A DNA stretch of 64,000 nucleotides from Naegleria gruberi (GCA_000004985.1 GG738869.1); one strand, 5' to 3'; shown: positions 1 to 10,600, counted from the first letter of the stretch. Notes: generated from the sequence alone by a model not told the origin. A program made the numbers and translations.

Positions 1-657
1 ACATTTTTTTAAAGTCAAAGTTTTAAAAATTTCATTTAAATTTCTTCCTAAAAAAATTGATTGTTTAAATGGTTTAAATTTACTTGATAAAATTTTAGAT
101 AAAAATTTACAATGTGAAATTCCAGCAGACAATTCAAAATTTAATTTATCTTTAATACTATTCCTAATATAGAGTGTTAAATAATTTGTAAAATATAATT
201 TCCACATGTAATCATTTAATTTTCTATTTTTTAATAATAATTCCCAATTAATTAAATTACCATTAACATCTAAACATGTATCTAAATTTTTATTTAAATA
301 ATTTATATTACTAAATATATTATTAATTAATTCAAAATTAAATTTTTTAATATTTGAAATAAATTTAATTAAATTATTAATAGATTTAGTAACATCAATA
401 TAAATTTCATCAATTGATGATTTTTCAATAATAAAATTCCAATATTTATAATAATTATCCATTTCCAAATTTAAATGTTTTAAAATTAAATTAAAAAATT
501 CAAAAATAATTAAATTTTTAATTTCAGAAATAAAAATTTGATAAGAAAATTCTCTATAAAATTTATAAGTAACTTTAGTTGTATTTGGAAACATTGGAAC
601 ATGAATTAATTTTAAATTTGGACATTTTTGTATTGCTATATTTGGTTTATCATGTTT
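1..657 (-). CDS. Y-family DNA polymerase (Pol eta / Rad30-like), internal fragment, partial at both ends. 219 codons read open on the minus strand from 657 down to 1, with no start or stop inside the window.
   Basis: I translated the reverse complement by hand. The frame is stop-free across all 657 nt. It reads ...KHDKPNIAIQKCPNLKLIHVPMF...SSIDEIYIDVTKS...FELSAGISHCKFLSKILSSKFKPFKQSIFLGRN.... SIDE(I)Y(I)D at nt 417-397 matches the Y-family catalytic Asp/Glu motif (SIDEAYVDLT in human Pol eta). SAGISH-K-L-K...KP..Q at nt 129-61 matches the conserved Pol eta motif CSAGISHNKVLAKL...NKPN.Q. KCPNL aligns to KLCPDL of Pol eta. Codons are almost all AAT, AAA, ATT, TTA and TTT. This ORF is not in the supplied ORF track, presumably because it has no start or stop in the window. 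Confidence 0.8.
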
Positions 658-707
658 NNNNNNNNNNNNNNNNNNNNNNNNNNNNNNNNNNNNNNNNNNN
701 NNNNNNN
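658..707. other. Assembly gap of 50 N, probably an unknown-size scaffold join.
   Basis: A run of exactly 50 n. Base composition changes from about 15% GC on its left to about 38% GC on its right. Confidence 0.95.
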
Positions 708-1620
708 TCCCCTTACATTCACAATGAAATTACGCTATTTACGAACAAGATTCAATATGTTCTTTAAACTATGTACGAATAGAGTGTTTGTTGTGGAATT
801 TTGTTATTCCATTATTATATTTAGTTTTACAATTGGATGTTTACAAAACGAGATTTTATTTTTGACTTATGTAAAACGTAAATTAAAAACTATTCGAATC
901 GAGACTACCTTTCTCATTAAGAATCCAAAAACGTGATTTTAAATTTATCAAAACAAAATGCTAGAACACATCGCCAGGTATTTGGTGGCTTTCTTTGTGG
1001 GCTTGCAATACTGTGCACTCACGTAGTCCAATTCAAAGAAGCGGTTTCCAATATTGAAAGTATTGAATTGGCCCAATCTGAAGTTTCTATTGGTGAACAG
1101 GTTTCAAGTATTGTTGTTTCAAGTGAGCTGTCTCATAATAACGAATTAGTTTTGGTTTCGTCTCAGGAATTATCCGACATGTTTGGCAAAAAGATGAATT
1201 GTCATTGGATTAAGCAACATTTTATTTTGGATATTGTGGGGAGTTGGTAGAGATTTGGTGGAAAGATATTGGCGTTTCAAATCTTCATCCGAAAATGAAA
1301 ATTCGAAACTTCCCAATAAGGAAGGCTCAATAGAATTCGAGTTCCAATAATTGTTACTCAAAATTATGGATCTGGATGTTATGATATTCAAACATTACTC
1401 AATGAACTCAACTCTAAATGCACAAAATACAGTTTCGAATTGGTGGCCGAATCTGAGACTAATCCTCCCTACCTAATTCGATGATTCCACTCTCTACATT
1501 GTTAATGCAAAATTTTCTGAAAGTATTAACAGACCGAAAATGTACATTTGTGCTCATACTAAAAATATGCTAGAATTGAAAAGTTTACAACCATTGGAAC
1601 AATATCTTTAATCACAATTT
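708..1620. other. Segment of different composition (about 35-48% GC, many CpG). It has no ATG-initiated conserved ORF. It may be a degenerate mobile element, UTR or noncoding RNA, or an unrecognised gene; I cannot say which.
   Basis: GC in 961-1020 is about 48%, against 13-15% in the flanks. CpGs are frequent (acgctatttacgaac, ttcgaatcgag, catcgcc, cacgtag, agcggtt, ggcgttt, tccgaaaatg, ttcgagttcc, ggccgaatc, accgaaaatg). The longest open frame on the plus strand (921-1250) has no ATG until near its end. Its residues (acidic, Ser/Val-rich) resemble nothing I recognise. Codon usage (CTG, GCG, CGC, GGC) differs from both neighbouring genes. Confidence 0.3.
724..954 (+). CDS. Hypothetical 76-aa ORF, MKLRYLRTRFNMFFKLCTNRVFVVEFCYSIIIFSFTIGCLQNEILFLTYVKRKLKTIRIETTFLIKNPKT. 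It contains one hydrophobic, transmembrane-like stretch. It is very possibly a chance ORF.
   Basis: ATG at 724 and TGA at 952-954. I see no conservation. Evidence is its length only. Confidence 0.1.
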
Positions 1621-1754
1621 ATTCACAATAGATTATAATATAATCAATATTGTAAAAAATTAATAAAAAAATAATTGGATTTTTATAAATTTCCTTTTTA
1701 GTCAATTTGTTCTATTTTAAAAAACTTTGAAAAATCAAAAAATTTCAAAAAAAA
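1621..1754 (+). promoter_or_regulatory. Extremely AT-rich (about 13% GC) 5' flank of the Zn2Cys6 gene with an A-rich translation-initiation context (aaaaaaaaATG). Probably promoter and 5'UTR.
   Basis: ttcaaaaaaaaATGcaa at 1743-1760. The sharp drop in GC just upstream of the ATG is typical of intergenic DNA in AT-rich eukaryotes. I have not identified a specific TATA or initiator element. Confidence 0.3.
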
Positions 1755-2291
1755 ATGCAATCATTTCAATCTTCACCACCATCCGAACCTCTTCCCTCCT
1801 GCTCTTCAACCACTTGCCAATCCTGCAGAAAACTCCACAGAAAATGTGATAAACTTCTTCCGTCCTGTTCCTACTGCACAAAAAGAGGCTACGTTTGTTG
1901 TTATGAAAAAACCAGAGATGAACAATCGGTTGTAATCCGAAAAAAGAATGAAAACCCTTCGTTAAATTATCATCTCCATCATGACAATGATACAACTCTT
2001 GTAAATAATAGTAATCATCATAATAATAATAATAATTTAGTATCATCTGGATTTGATAGTAGTAGTAATAATATGATGATGGTGATGAATAATAGTAATA
2101 ATAATTTTAATGTAAATAATAATAAGCAAAATAGGTATAGATCGGTTCCTTATCAATCGACTGCTGGTTCTTCGTTGATATTTTCCTCTCAAAGAAATGA
2201 AAACAATTCTATGAATTATTCAATGATGATGAATGATTATCAACAGCAGCAGCAATCAGCAGCTTTTGTAAATATTGCAAATATGTTTAAT
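1755..2291 (+). CDS. N-terminal part of a fungal-type Zn(II)2Cys6 (GAL4-like) binuclear-cluster transcription factor. It runs into the N gap.
   Basis: ATG at 1755. Residues 21-48 (nt 1815-1898) read CQSCRKLHRKCDKLLPSCSYCTKRGYVC. This is C-X2-C-X6-C-X6-C-X2-C-X6-C, exactly the Zn2Cys6 spacing. After it comes Asn/Ser/His/Met-rich low complexity (NNSNHHNNNNN, SSSNNMMMVMNNSNNNFNVNNNKQN, QQQQQ) encoded by AAT, AGT and ATG trinucleotide runs. Confidence 0.85.
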
Positions 2292-3457
2292 NNNNNNNNN
2301 NNNNNNNNNNNNNNNNNNNNNNNNNNNNNNNNNNNNNNNNNNNNNNNNNNNNNNNNNNNNNNNNNNNNNNNNNNNNNNNNNNNNNNNNNNNNNNNNNNNN
2401 NNNNNNNNNNNNNNNNNNNNNNNNNNNNNNNNNNNNNNNNNNNNNNNNNNNNNNNNNNNNNNNNNNNNNNNNNNNNNNNNNNNNNNNNNNNNNNNNNNNN
2501 NNNNNNNNNNNNNNNNNNNNNNNNNNNNNNNNNNNNNNNNNNNNNNNNNNNNNNNNNNNNNNNNNNNNNNNNNNNNNNNNNNNNNNNNNNNNNNNNNNNN
2601 NNNNNNNNNNNNNNNNNNNNNNNNNNNNNNNNNNNNNNNNNNNNNNNNNNNNNNNNNNNNNNNNNNNNNNNNNNNNNNNNNNNNNNNNNNNNNNNNNNNN
2701 NNNNNNNNNNNNNNNNNNNNNNNNNNNNNNNNNNNNNNNNNNNNNNNNNNNNNNNNNNNNNNNNNNNNNNNNNNNNNNNNNNNNNNNNNNNNNNNNNNNN
2801 NNNNNNNNNNNNNNNNNNNNNNNNNNNNNNNNNNNNNNNNNNNNNNNNNNNNNNNNNNNNNNNNNNNNNNNNNNNNNNNNNNNNNNNNNNNNNNNNNNNN
2901 NNNNNNNNNNNNNNNNNNNNNNNNNNNNNNNNNNNNNNNNNNNNNNNNNNNNNNNNNNNNNNNNNNNNNNNNNNNNNNNNNNNNNNNNNNNNNNNNNNNN
3001 NNNNNNNNNNNNNNNNNNNNNNNNNNNNNNNNNNNNNNNNNNNNNNNNNNNNNNNNNNNNNNNNNNNNNNNNNNNNNNNNNNNNNNNNNNNNNNNNNNNN
3101 NNNNNNNNNNNNNNNNNNNNNNNNNNNNNNNNNNNNNNNNNNNNNNNNNNNNNNNNNNNNNNNNNNNNNNNNNNNNNNNNNNNNNNNNNNNNNNNNNNNN
3201 NNNNNNNNNNNNNNNNNNNNNNNNNNNNNNNNNNNNNNNNNNNNNNNNNNNNNNNNNNNNNNNNNNNNNNNNNNNNNNNNNNNNNNNNNNNNNNNNNNNN
3301 NNNNNNNNNNNNNNNNNNNNNNNNNNNNNNNNNNNNNNNNNNNNNNNNNNNNNNNNNNNNNNNNNNNNNNNNNNNNNNNNNNNNNNNNNNNNNNNNNNNN
3401 NNNNNNNNNNNNNNNNNNNNNNNNNNNNNNNNNNNNNNNNNNNNNNNNNNNNNNNNN
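2292..3457. other. Assembly gap of 1,166 N, presumably a sized gap. It lies inside the transcription-factor gene.
   Basis: A continuous n run. The same reading frame is open on both sides if the gap length is taken literally. Confidence 0.95.
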
Positions 3458-3458
3458 G

Positions 3459-3854
3459 ATCTATTTACAGCAGAGAAATAGTGCATCGGGAATAGAGTCA
3501 TTATTTGATTTTGGAGAGGATATCTTTTCCATAGAGTCTCTTTCCAATTCATCACCAAGCTCATCAAATTGCTCGAAAGAAAATCTAACACCACAAACCA
3601 TTTTCGATACCTATCAGTCAGATTACGCCCCACTTTTCCGAGACTTTGGTATAGATATGGAAATAGTTGATGTATTCATTGAGAATATGAGTGAACAAGA
3701 AAAATTATTTCATAATGACAAGACGAAACTAGCAGAAAAGAGAATGGAACTTGTAGAATCTTTCAAGGCAATATCTGGAAAGAAGAAGGATGTATTTGGC
3801 ATTGTAGCTTGTGAATTTTTAAAGAAACAACTTCTTTTTAATGAAAATAACTAG
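3459..3854 (+). CDS. C-terminal 131 codons of a protein-coding gene, most likely the same Zn2Cys6 factor. It ends at TAG 3852-3854.
   Basis: The frame is open for 131 codons from the gap edge to the stop: IYLQQRNSASGIESLFDFGEDIFSIESLSNSSPSSSNCSKENLTPQTIFDTYQSDYAPLFRDFGIDMEIVDVFIENMSEQEKLFHNDKTKLAEKRMELVESFKAISGKKKDVFGIVACEFLKKQLLFNENN*. It is in phase with the 1755 ATG if the gap is exactly 1,166 nt. Assigning it to the same gene is inference. The expected fungal middle-homology region would lie in the gap. Confidence 0.55.
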   Translation: MYLQQRNSASGIESLFDFGEDIFSIESLSNSSPSSSNCSKENLTPQTIFDTYQSDYAPLFRDFGIDMEIVDVFIENMSEQEKLFHNDKTKLAEKRMELVESFKAISGKKKDVFGIVACEFLKKQLLFNENN

Positions 3855-3947
3855 TTAATTACCTATATAATTTATTTTTCTAGTTCAACAAGTTGACATT
3901 TGTGAAACAATCTGAACATGTGAAAAAGATGAAATAGTTATTAATTT

Positions 3948-3966
3948 AAGGAATTAAGGAATTAAG
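3948..3966. repeat. Short tandem repeat (AAGGAATT) x 2.4 in the shared 3' intergenic region.
   Basis: aaggaatt aaggaatt aag is read directly at 3948-3966. Confidence 0.6.
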
Positions 3967-3993
3967 AAAAGGTAGCTTTTTTAAATTTTAATT

Positions 3994-3999
3994 TTTATT
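3994..3999 (-). terminator. Candidate AATAAA polyadenylation signal for the alpha-tubulin transcript, about 70 nt downstream of its stop codon.
   Basis: The minus strand reads aataataaaaatt (plus tttatt at 3994-3999). AATAAA arises easily by chance in DNA this AT-rich, hence the low confidence. A TATATA element at about 3866-3871 lies 12 nt after the transcription-factor stop and could serve the plus-strand gene. Confidence 0.2.
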
Positions 4000-4064
4000 A
4001 TTTCAATGCTTGATTGTTCAATTATTACATTAACAATATTGCACTGAAAGTGAGATTAATGGAT

Positions 4065-4694
<630 letters not shown>

Positions 4695-7600: not shown

Positions 7601-10600
7601 NNNNNNNNNNNNNNNNNNNNNNNNNNNNNNNNNNNNNNNNNNNNNNNNNNNNNNNNNNNNNNNNNNNNNNNNNNNNNNNNNNNNNNNNNNNNNNNNNNNN
7701 NNNNNNNNNNNNNNNNNNNNNNNNNNNNNNNNNNNNNNNNNNNNNNNNNNNNNNNNNNNNNNNNNNNNNNNNNNNNNNNNNNNNNNNNNNNNNNNNNNNN
7801 NNNNNNNNNNNNNNNNNNNNNNNNNNNNNNNNNNNNNNNNNNNNNNNNNNNNNNNNNNNNNNNNNNNNNNNNNNNNNNNNNNNNNNNNNNNNNNNNNNNN
7901 NNNNNNNNNNNNNNNNNNNNNNNNNNNNNNNNNNNNNNNNNNNNNNNNNNNNNNNNNNNNNNNNNNNNNNNNNNNNNNNNNNNNNNNNNNNNNNNNNNNN
8001 NNNNNNNNNNNNNNNNNNNNNNNNNNNNNNNNNNNNNNNNNNNNNNNNNNNNNNNNNNNNNNNNNNNNNNNNNNNNNNNNNNNNNNNNNNNNNNNNNNNN
8101 NNNNNNNNNNNNNNNNNNNNNNNNNNNNNNNNNNNNNNNNNNNNNNNNNNNNNNNNNNNNNNNNNNNNNNNNNNNNNNNNNNNNNNNNNNNNNNNNNNNN
8201 NNNNNNNNNNNNNNNNNNNNNNNNNNNNNNNNNNNNNNNNNNNNNNNNNNNNNNNNNNNNNNNNNNNNNNNNNNNNNNNNNNNNNNNNNNNNNNNNNNNN
8301 NNNNNNNNNNNNNNNNNNNNNNNNNNNNNNNNNNNNNNNNNNNNNNNNNNNNNNNNNNNNNNNNNNNNNNNNNNNNNNNNNNNNNNNNNNNNNNNNNNNN
8401 NNNNNNNNNNNNNNNNNNNNNNNNNNNNNNNNNNNNNNNNNNNNNNNNNNNNNNNNNNNNNNNNNNNNNNNNNNNNNNNNNNNNNNNNNNNNNNNNNNNN
8501 NNNNNNNNNNNNNNNNNNNNNNNNNNNNNNNNNNNNNNNNNNNNNNNNNNNNNNNNNNNNNNNNNNNNNNNNNNNNNNNNNNNNNNNNNNNNNNNNNNNN
8601 NNNNNNNNNNNNNNNNNNNNNNNNNNNNNNNNNNNNNNNNNNNNNNNNNNNNNNNNNNNNNNNNNNNNNNNNNNNNNNNNNNNNNNNNNNNNNNNNNNNN
8701 NNNNNNNNNNNNNNNNNNNNNNNNNNNNNNNNNNNNNNNNNNNNNNNNNNNNNNNNNNNNNNNNNNNNNNNNNNNNNNNNNNNNNNNNNNNNNNNNNNNN
8801 NNNNNNNNNNNNNNNNNNNNNNNNNNNNNNNNNNNNNNNNNNNNNNNNNNNNNNNNNNNNNNNNNNNNNNNNNNNNNNNNNNNNNNNNNNNNNNNNNNNN
8901 NNNNNNNNNNNNNNNNNNNNNNNNNNNNNNNNNNNNNNNNNNNNNNNNNNNNNNNNNNNNNNNNNNNNNNNNNNNNNNNNNNNNNNNNNNNNNNNNNNNN
9001 NNNNNNNNNNNNNNNNNNNNNNNNNNNNNNNNNNNNNNNNNNNNNNNNNNNNNNNNNNNNNNNNNNNNNNNNNNNNNNNNNNNNNNNNNNNNNNNNNNNN
9101 NNNNNNNNNNNNNNNNNNNNNNNNNNNNNNNNNNNNNNNNNNNNNNNNNNNNNNNNNNNNNNNNNNNNNNNNNNNNNNNNNNNNNNNNNNNNNNNNNNNN
9201 NNNNNNNNNNNNNNNNNNNNNNNNNNNNNNNNNNNNNNNNNNNNNNNNNNNNNNNNNNNNNNNNNNNNNNNNNNNNNNNNNNNNNNNNNNNNNNNNNNNN
9301 NNNNNNNNNNNNNNNNNNNNNNNNNNNNNNNNNNNNNNNNNNNNNNNNNNNNNNNNNNNNNNNNNNNNNNNNNNNNNNNNNNNNNNNNNNNNNNNNNNNN
9401 NNNNNNNNNNNNNNNNNNNNNNNNNNNNNNNNNNNNNNNNNNNNNNNNNNNNNNNNNNNNNNNNNNNNNNNNNNNNNNNNNNNNNNNNNNNNNNNNNNNN
9501 NNNNNNNNNNNNNNNNNNNNNNNNNNNNNNNNNNNNNNNNNNNNNNNNNNNNNNNNNNNNNNNNNNNNNNNNNNNNNNNNNNNNNNNNNNNNNNNNNNNN
9601 NNNNNNNNNNNNNNNNNNNNNNNNNNNNNNNNNNNNNNNNNNNNNNNNNNNNNNNNNNNNNNNNNNNNNNNNNNNNNNNNNNNNNNNNNNNNNNNNNNNN
9701 NNNNNNNNNNNNNNNNNNNNNNNNNNNNNNNNNNNNNNNNNNNNNNNNNNNNNNNNNNNNNNNNNNNNNNNNNNNNNNNNNNNNNNNNNNNNNNNNNNNN
9801 NNNNNNNNNNNNNNNNNNNNNNNNNNNNNNNNNNNNNNNNNNNNNNNNNNNNNNNNNNNNNNNNNNNNNNNNNNNNNNNNNNNNNNNNNNNNNNNNNNNN
9901 NNNNNNNNNNNNNNNNNNNNNNNNNNNNNNNNNNNNNNNNNNNNNNNNNNNNNNNNNNNNNNNNNNNNNNNNNNNNNNNNNNNNNNNNNNNNNNNNNNNN
10001 NNNNNNNNNNNNNNNNNNNNNNNNNNNNNNNNNNNNNNNNNNNNNNNNNNNNNNNNNNNNNNNNNNNNNNNNNNNNNNNNNNNNNNNNNNNNNNNNNNNN
10101 NNNNNNNNNNNNNNNNNNNNNNNNNNNNNNNNNNNNNNNNNNNNNNNNNNNNNNNNNNNNNNNNNNNNNNNNNNNNNNNNNNNNNNNNNNNNNNNNNNNN
10201 NNNNNNNNNNNNNNNNNNNNNNNNNNNNNNNNNNNNNNNNNNNNNNNNNNNNNNNNNNNNNNNNNNNNNNNNNNNNNNNNNNNNNNNNNNNNNNNNNNNN
10301 NNNNNNNNNNNNNNNNNNNNNNNNNNNNNNNNNNNNNNNNNNNNNNNNNNNNNNNNNNNNNNNNNNNNNNNNNNNNNNNNNNNNNNNNNNNNNNNNNNNN
10401 NNNNNNNNNNNNNNNNNNNNNNNNNNNNNNNNNNNNNNNNNNNNNNNNNNNNNNNNNNNNNNNNNNNNNNNNNNNNNNNNNNNNNNNNNNNNNNNNNNNN
10501 NNNNNNNNNNNNNNNNNNNNNNNNNNNNNNNNNNNNNNNNNNNNNNNNNNNNNNNNNNNNNNNNNNNNNNNNNNNNNNNNNNNNNNNNNNNNNNNNNNNN

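Follow-up and report, generated by a model that had tools for sequence, protein, structure and literature searches.

Bacterial endosymbionts with AT-rich genomes, such as Carsonella and Zinderia, have functional enzymes encoded at about 13–17% GC and make near-complete use of minimal-GC codons. In those bacteria the whole reduced genome is affected, whereas the case described here concerns one nuclear gene of a free-living eukaryote that lies beside genes of 32–44% GC. For Plasmodium, Dictyostelium and anaerobic fungi, mean GC contents of 21–27% have been reported for coding sequences (CDS) and of about 14% for non-CDS, the lowest mean CDS value listed being 21.2%, and it has been stated that in AT-rich genomes the GC content of non-coding DNA 'always' falls short of that of coding DNA (PMC5857377). 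Among the Heterolobosea, Naegleria genomes have 33–37% GC (PMC12482156), and the genome of Willaertia magna, sister of Naegleria, has 24.7–25% GC and was first assembled into 4,505 short scaffolds (PMC6892926, PMC11702301).

The window analysed here, a stretch of 64,000 nucleotides, begins with 657 nucleotides that, as judged from homology and a predicted structure, encode part of the Y-family DNA polymerase eta (Pol eta). With 14.6% GC this fragment falls about 7 points below the lowest mean CDS GC of the AT-rich eukaryotes surveyed and is at the level of their non-CDS (PMC5857377). What the locus has in common with Plasmodium, Dictyostelium and anaerobic fungi are A/T-ending codons, an enrichment in Asn, Lys, Ile, Phe and Tyr, and C-ending codons in highly expressed genes (PMC5857377). 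The fragment probably belongs to a functional, fast-evolving and weakly codon-selected nuclear Pol eta gene of an AT-rich heterolobosean genome, brought to its AT limit through mutation bias. It most probably is an extreme case of a known pattern of AT drift with a conventional mechanism and not a new kind of system.

Readable sequence and gene layout

Real sequence makes up 3,478 of the 64,000 bases (1–657, 708–2291 and 3458–4694), and all local comparisons made below are limited to these three blocks, which have GC contents of 14.6%, 30.6% and 36.5%, respectively. The other 94.6% of the window consists of N, with 50 N at 658–707, 1166 N at 2292–3457 and N throughout 4695–64000. The features assigned within the readable blocks are collected in Table 1, together with those parts of Pol eta that are expected to lie beyond them.

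Table 1. Features of the window, with parts of Pol eta expected outside the readable sequence
Feature	Position	Strand	Remarks
Coding fragment of Pol eta, a Y-family polymerase of Rad30/POLH type	1–657	−	219 codons; ends set by window start and N gap
Thumb/palm motif SAGISHCKFLSKILSSKFKPFKQ	61–129	−	human SAGISHNKVLAKLACGLNKPNRQ; S177, G179, K184, K188, K195, P196, Q199 conserved
Variable insert, palm motif to SAGIS motif	130–387	−	N/K/I/L/F-rich; includes the 5–7% GC blocks
Catalytic palm motif SIDEIYIDVT	388–417	−	D83 and E84 invariant in 30 Pol eta-like sequences
Block CPNLKLIHVPMFPNTTKVTYKFYRE	550–624	−	ends in Pol eta-typical K-x-T-x-YRE; first 21 residues are CPNLKLIHVPMFPNTTKVTYK
Little-finger/PAD domain			encoded past residue 219, beyond the left edge of the window
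Pol eta-specific finger residues (human Q38, R61; S-Y-E-A-R motif)			region outside readable sequence
UBZ zinc finger and PIP box			outside window
Scaffold gap	658–707		50 N
Region without convincing ORF or Pfam/Rfam match	708–1620		913 nt, 32.5% GC
AT-rich spacer	1621–1754		12.7% GC; immediately 5' of the transcription-factor ORF
Zn(2)-Cys(6) transcription-factor gene, 5' part	1755–2291	+	divergent from Pol eta; GC3 26%
Zn(2)-Cys(6) transcription-factor gene, 3' part	3459–3854	+	same open frame beyond the 1166-N gap, with stop codon
Alpha-tubulin gene, C-terminal half	4065–4694	−	43.7% GC; strongly biased codons

The region at 708–1620 gave no Rfam, tRNA or Pfam match and no tblastx match to relatives. 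Its longest ORF has 109 codons and is marginal (p = 0.019), its CpG observed/expected ratio is 0.91, and its GC content lies 18 points above that of the adjoining Pol eta coding DNA. In position it matches two small ORFs in a related heterolobosean locus (L001), to which its similarity is marginal (E = 0.04).

A coding fragment of DNA polymerase eta

The minus-strand frame that begins at base 657 is open over 219 of 219 codons, and the five other frames are rich in stops. Given the base composition, 219 stop-free codons would be expected by chance with a probability of about 1e-11, and the longest open frame in 5000 shuffles reached at most 123 codons; the open coding frame that had been proposed in an earlier inspection of the DNA without database searches (the sequence-only reading) is thereby borne out. 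The Pol eta identity proposed there also proved sound. The Pfam IMS domain (PF00817) is recognised with 39.2 bits, well above the gathering threshold of 23.2 (E = 8.4e-10; alignment of residues 76–191 with profile positions 90–147), and a sequence search of the PDB returned human and yeast Pol eta as the best matches (E = 1e-4), ahead of Pol IV (3e-3) and Pol iota (0.035). An AlphaFold2 model built on a 30-sequence alignment has a pLDDT of 88.7 and a pTM of 0.84. When this model was compared with the PDB by Foldseek, the top 24 matches were all human Pol eta (E = 6.6e-7), and structures of both Pol eta and Pol iota were matched with a probability of 1.00 and query-normalised TM scores of 0.50–0.56. 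All six positions that are invariant in the 30 Pol eta-like sequences are kept in the fragment (D83, E84, R165, G179, K188 and P196), as are 12 of the 12 near-invariant positions of the same alignment that fall within it, which amounts to 18 of 18 conserved positions. On the strength of homology and the predicted fold, bases 1–657 of the minus strand are thus assigned as a Y-family Pol eta coding fragment. A tandem-repeat artefact was considered as well and rejected, as the ORF contains only weak AT-rich pseudo-repeats.

With human and yeast Pol eta (3MR2/4O3S and 1JIH) the fragment shares the IMS domain, the motifs SIDE(A/I)Y, K-x-T-x-YRE and SAGISHxK...KP..Q, and the predicted palm/fingers/thumb fold. 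It differs from both in carrying Naegleria-type inserts after YRE and between SIDE and SAGIS, in its content of Phe, Tyr, Met, Ile, Asn and Lys (FYMINK) residues, which reaches 54%, and in its 14.6% GC, and its identity to human Pol eta is about 19–23%. The insert between SIDE and SAGIS is predicted with high confidence to be helical, and its layout is common to the orthologue of Naegleria lovaniensis. The fragment corresponds approximately to residues 65–285 of full-length orthologues. The N-terminal catalytic Asp (D-x-D-C-F-F motif), which should be encoded within the N gap or on its far side, was not found in 708–1754. The motif VSYEAR is present in the relatives P0001, P0132 and P0184, and the orthologues P0125 and P0126 show by eye a UBZ-like finger of the form C-x2-C...H-x3-H together with a PIP-like box, LFNYF.

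Heterolobosean orthologues

In an exhaustive HMMER search of 1.84 billion representatives, the best match was N. lovaniensis XP_044551679 (E = 8.5e-29), followed by P0126 from a metagenomic heterolobosean, which JGI names 'DNA polymerase eta' (E = 3e-22), by P0001, and by animal Pol eta sequences and Rozella; the matches that carry a name are Pol eta. Only this exhaustive search revealed the Naegleria orthologue, since a word-index search had returned P0001 as the sole homologue; this protein from the unannotated assembly GCA_016850925.1 is 30% identical to the fragment over the full alignment.

The window gene is the orthologue of XP_044551679 (KAG2387687, 'hypothetical protein C9374_001281'), to which it is 47% identical and with which it shares the positions of two lineage-specific inserts. 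The 21-residue block CPNLKLIHVPMFPNTTKVTYK is identical in the two proteins, and this block and a second one, KHDKPN, are common to the window, N. lovaniensis and P0001. The differences between the two genes lie in composition and surroundings. The orthologous region of N. lovaniensis has 27.4% GC (GC1/2/3 of 33/27/22%) in contrast to 14.6% and a GC3 of 5.5% in the window, the N. lovaniensis protein carries long poly-N/T/S runs that the window fragment does not have, and its gene, which sits on a 716-kb nuclear contig, has neighbours other than those in the window. Scans of metagenomes, viral contigs and GTDB contigs brought up no further DNA of the same or close organisms. A giant-virus origin was rejected, considering that the scan of viral contigs found no relatives and that the gene is orthologous to a nuclear Naegleria gene.

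The RefSeq model XP_044551679, named 'hypothetical protein', represents a Pol eta that lacks its N-terminal part. On PYSW02000012 of N. lovaniensis, exons encoding D-x-D-x-FF and QQHDD lie 5' of the annotated start (L003:9621–9692 and 9917–10000, where L003 denotes the N. lovaniensis locus) with an intron of about 225 nt between them. In this species ISHSIR stands in place of the usual VSYEAR.

AT saturation of codons and protein

A recount gave 96 G+C among the 657 bases of the fragment, that is, the 14.6% stated in the sequence-only reading, with GC1, GC2 and GC3 of 18.3, 20.1 and 5.5%. Two 60-nt blocks have 5.0% (301–360) and 6.7% GC (481–540), in agreement with the blocks of about 5% that had been pointed out there. 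No encoding of the same protein could have less than 13.5% GC. The lowest-GC synonym is used in 97% of the degenerate codons (AAA 28/28, AAT 28/28, TTT 19/19, GAA 10/10 and GAT 8/8), and the amino-acid sequence dictates all but 7 of the 96 G+C bases.

The protein itself is shifted as well. The 54% of FYMINK residues compare with 32% in P0001, and where the window and N. lovaniensis have different residues, only the window has one of the FYMINK type at 47 sites and only the relative at 10. Codon GC in the window and in N. lovaniensis is 10.7% and 30.0% at differing sites, as compared to 18.9% and 24.1% at identical sites. Over half of the GC deficit relative to N. lovaniensis is found at codon positions 1 and 2; therefore, weak codon selection alone is insufficient as an explanation, and relaxed constraint on residues is equally involved. 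The suggestion of the sequence-only reading, extremely weak codon selection on a low-expression gene under strong AT mutational pressure, accordingly needs to be amended: it agrees with the 97% of minimal-GC codons and with the local GC minima seen at Pol eta in two relatives, but it left out the share contributed by amino-acid replacement.

That a coding region here is as AT-rich as intergenic DNA, the point which had drawn attention to the locus, holds locally. In total GC there is no significant difference between the fragment and the two intergenic pieces (14.6% vs 18.3%, p = 0.15), which individually have 12.7% (1621–1754) and 21.9% GC (3855–4064). The synonymous sites are even more AT-rich: at degenerate third positions Pol eta has 6 G+C among 213 (2.8%), below the 63 of 344 (18%) in the two intergenic pieces taken together (p = 9e-9) and also below 1621–1754 alone (p = 6e-4). 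The further values that had been set against the fragment were close to those obtained here, with 42.2% for the transcription-factor gene over its first 180 nt and 43.7% for the tubulin ORF. A mutation pressure acting uniformly towards AT cannot account for the Zn2Cys6 gene, which lies about 1 kb away and has 72 G+C among 297 degenerate third positions (24%; p = 9e-13 vs Pol eta); the tubulin has 57 of 176. Intergenic DNA has 13–22% GC in the window and 27–45% at the N. lovaniensis locus. Taken with the GC contents of the Naegleria and W. magna genomes, this makes a Willaertia-like amoeba the probable source of the window.

A tendency of Pol eta towards low GC is also seen in two of the relatives. 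At the N. lovaniensis locus L003 (34.5% GC) it is the lowest-GC gene of 9 (30.8%), and at the metagenomic heterolobosean locus L004 (35.2% GC) the lowest-GC gene of 16 (32.2%); at both, the lowest-GC stretches of 657 nt within ±10 kb fall in Pol eta, and its GC3 is the second-lowest. No GC dip at Pol eta was found in other relatives (L001, L005–L008), and the tendency is therefore not universal.

The Zn2Cys6 neighbour and the join across the gap

The Pol eta gene of L001 stands head-to-head with a Zn_clus gene (PF00172, 40 bits) at a distance of about 830 bp, an arrangement like that in the window, and in the transcription factors of both loci an S/P-rich leader precedes the N-terminal zinc cluster. 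This synteny of Pol eta and Zn2Cys6, which rests on one relative (L001), supports the scaffold join, and a foreign compartment or a chimeric scaffold is unlikely; we infer that 1–657 is linked to 708 onwards across the gap. The missing N-terminal codons of Pol eta, about 65 in number, were looked for on the right-hand side of the gap without success, and the true length of the gap must therefore exceed 50 nt. A 12-residue likeness between the DNA on that side and the upstream exon of N. lovaniensis is interrupted by a stop codon and no better than expected by chance (E = 0.6).

The divergent pairs, L001:2–343 (−) with L001:1176–1919 (+) and 1–657 (−) with 1755–2291 (+) in the window, are conserved between two heteroloboseans. 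At L004 a Zn_clus gene is located 2.5 kb upstream of Pol eta. 'Fungal-type' Zn2Cys6 factors appear to be established in Heterolobosea. The Zn2Cys6 ORF of the window remains in frame across the 1166-N run, for which the chance probability is 1 in 3. Composition changes steeply along this gene, from 42% GC in the first 180 nt, which encode the zinc cluster, to 27% in the later N/M/Q-rich low-complexity part, and AAT runs are found at 2004–2036 and 2088–2125. A homologue search with the C-terminal part of the transcription factor found none.

Explanations for the composition of Pol eta

If the fragment is part of a functional gene at its AT limit, purifying selection would still act on the catalytic core of Pol eta, while AT-biased mutation would carry everything dispensable to the compositional floor. 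Synonymous sites would move to the lowest-GC codon almost without exception, and weakly constrained residues to amino acids with AT codons (Ile, Asn, Lys, Leu-TTA, Phe and Tyr). Pol eta is presumably expressed at a low level, and mutation bias would be the driver of the change, whereas tubulin, as a highly expressed gene, would be held at C/T-ending optimal codons. Pol eta would be hit harder than its neighbours because it evolves rapidly and is not under the tubulin-like selection for C-ending 'optimal' codons. Several points go against this explanation. A single genome-wide mutational equilibrium combined with low expression does not obviously predict a GC3 below that of intergenic DNA and of the Zn2Cys6 gene, because high expression would not be expected of a transcription factor either. 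Moreover, the 913 nt beside the gap have 32.5% GC and no clear coding capacity, and L001 and L005–L008 show no dip.

The indistinguishable GC of the fragment and its flanking intergenic DNA, together with the drop by 15 points in GC1 and by 7 points in GC2 relative to the N. lovaniensis region, could also be read as relaxed selection on an incipient pseudogene, with Pol eta being lost and the frame still open since the relaxation is recent; that the closest relative is only 47% identical and that an alpha-tubulin copy with two frameshifts lies on the same short scaffold would fit as well. This is very unlikely, however, given that a single substitution could turn 98 of the 219 codons into a stop and that none of the 143 single-base changes with this effect has occurred, in a frame whose openness by chance has a probability of about 1e-11. 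All 18 conserved positions are kept, D83 and E84 included, a Pol eta fold is confidently predicted, and GC3 is below, not equal to, the GC of intergenic DNA. As far as sequence and model go, the stop-free frame, the kept residues and the confident fold speak against a pseudogene and for purifying selection that still continues, although a very recent relaxation is conceivable. A similarly improbable origin of the contrast would be the assembly: bases 1–657 might stem from another locus, from a co-cultured heterolobosean or from an AT-rich extrachromosomal or organellar element, which would account for the switch from 15% to 30% GC exactly at the 50-N gap, for the sharp difference in codon usage between its two sides and for the absence of the Pol eta 5' end on the right, and would be in keeping with sequence errors at contig ends of the draft. 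Against mis-scaffolding stands the recurrence of the head-to-head pair at L001, with the S/P-rich leader in both factors. Against another compartment, the N. lovaniensis orthologue is located on a large nuclear contig, no relatives were found in viral contigs, and the spacer at 1621–1754 as well as the N-rich part of the transcription factor show that the right block, too, comes from an AT-rich genome. The derivation of the left block from a different genomic compartment or contig, which the sequence-only reading had put forward as its alternative, is thus disfavoured.

A force particular to the gene or its immediate surroundings could consist in an AT micro-domain, without GC-biased gene conversion or in another replication or chromatin context, or in selection for non-optimal codons that limit a mutagenic polymerase. 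The synonymous GC of 2.8%, significantly below both intergenic DNA and the neighbour gene, would be explained in this way, and the local GC minimum and second-lowest GC3 of Pol eta in two relatives of about 35% GC point to a conserved tendency. Such a force is nevertheless unlikely, as the intergenic DNA used for comparison amounts to only 344 nt and probably includes promoter and UTR signals that keep its GC up, the amino-acid shift is not explained by selection at the codon level, and four other relatives show no dip. A stronger version, to which we give little credence, holds that the genome is a mosaic at the kilobase scale and that the AT codons of Pol eta are selected or locally enforced below the neutral AT equilibrium, which would keep an error-prone polymerase scarce, with a weaker form of the same in the Naegleria relatives; the figures behind it are the GC3 of 2.8% in Pol eta and the 13–22% GC of the adjoining non-coding DNA.

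Returning to the explanation by mutation bias in a functional gene, it would mean that in a free-living eukaryote the nuclear gene of a conserved enzyme can be driven by AT-biased mutation to about 1 GC point above its own floor. More than half of the residues come from six AT-coded amino acids, yet the catalytic residues are kept and a Pol eta fold is confidently predicted, so the gene could serve as a natural test case for the robustness of proteins under compositional drift. It also holds a warning for gene finding, in that such genes resemble intergenic DNA and are easily missed; the Pol eta gene of the window has no model in the databases searched.

The alpha-tubulin gene

The alpha-tubulin is of the type found in plants, SAR and excavates, being 94–99% identical to proteins of those groups and 88% to those of vertebrates, with 99% identity to a Lotharella transcript, a match that is not diagnostic of the species; the exact ORF has no record in the collections searched. 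Such a tubulin fits a heterolobosean. Together with the Naegleria orthology it rules out an anaerobic fungus or a dictyostelid as the source, both of which the Zn2Cys6 domain, the poly-N runs and the AT-richness could have suggested. The end of the tubulin (4065–4130) reads ...GEDGGDQ and is without the usual C-terminal Tyr/Phe, a tail shared by 0 of 6 close matches. At the other end of the readable part, less than 70 nt from the N run (4626–4694, minus strand), the frame shifts twice, the last segment being HFMLCSYAP. Each of the frameshifts corresponds to the loss of one base from a homopolymer of two (TT and CC), and they reflect either poor sequence at the contig end or a tubulin pseudogene copy.
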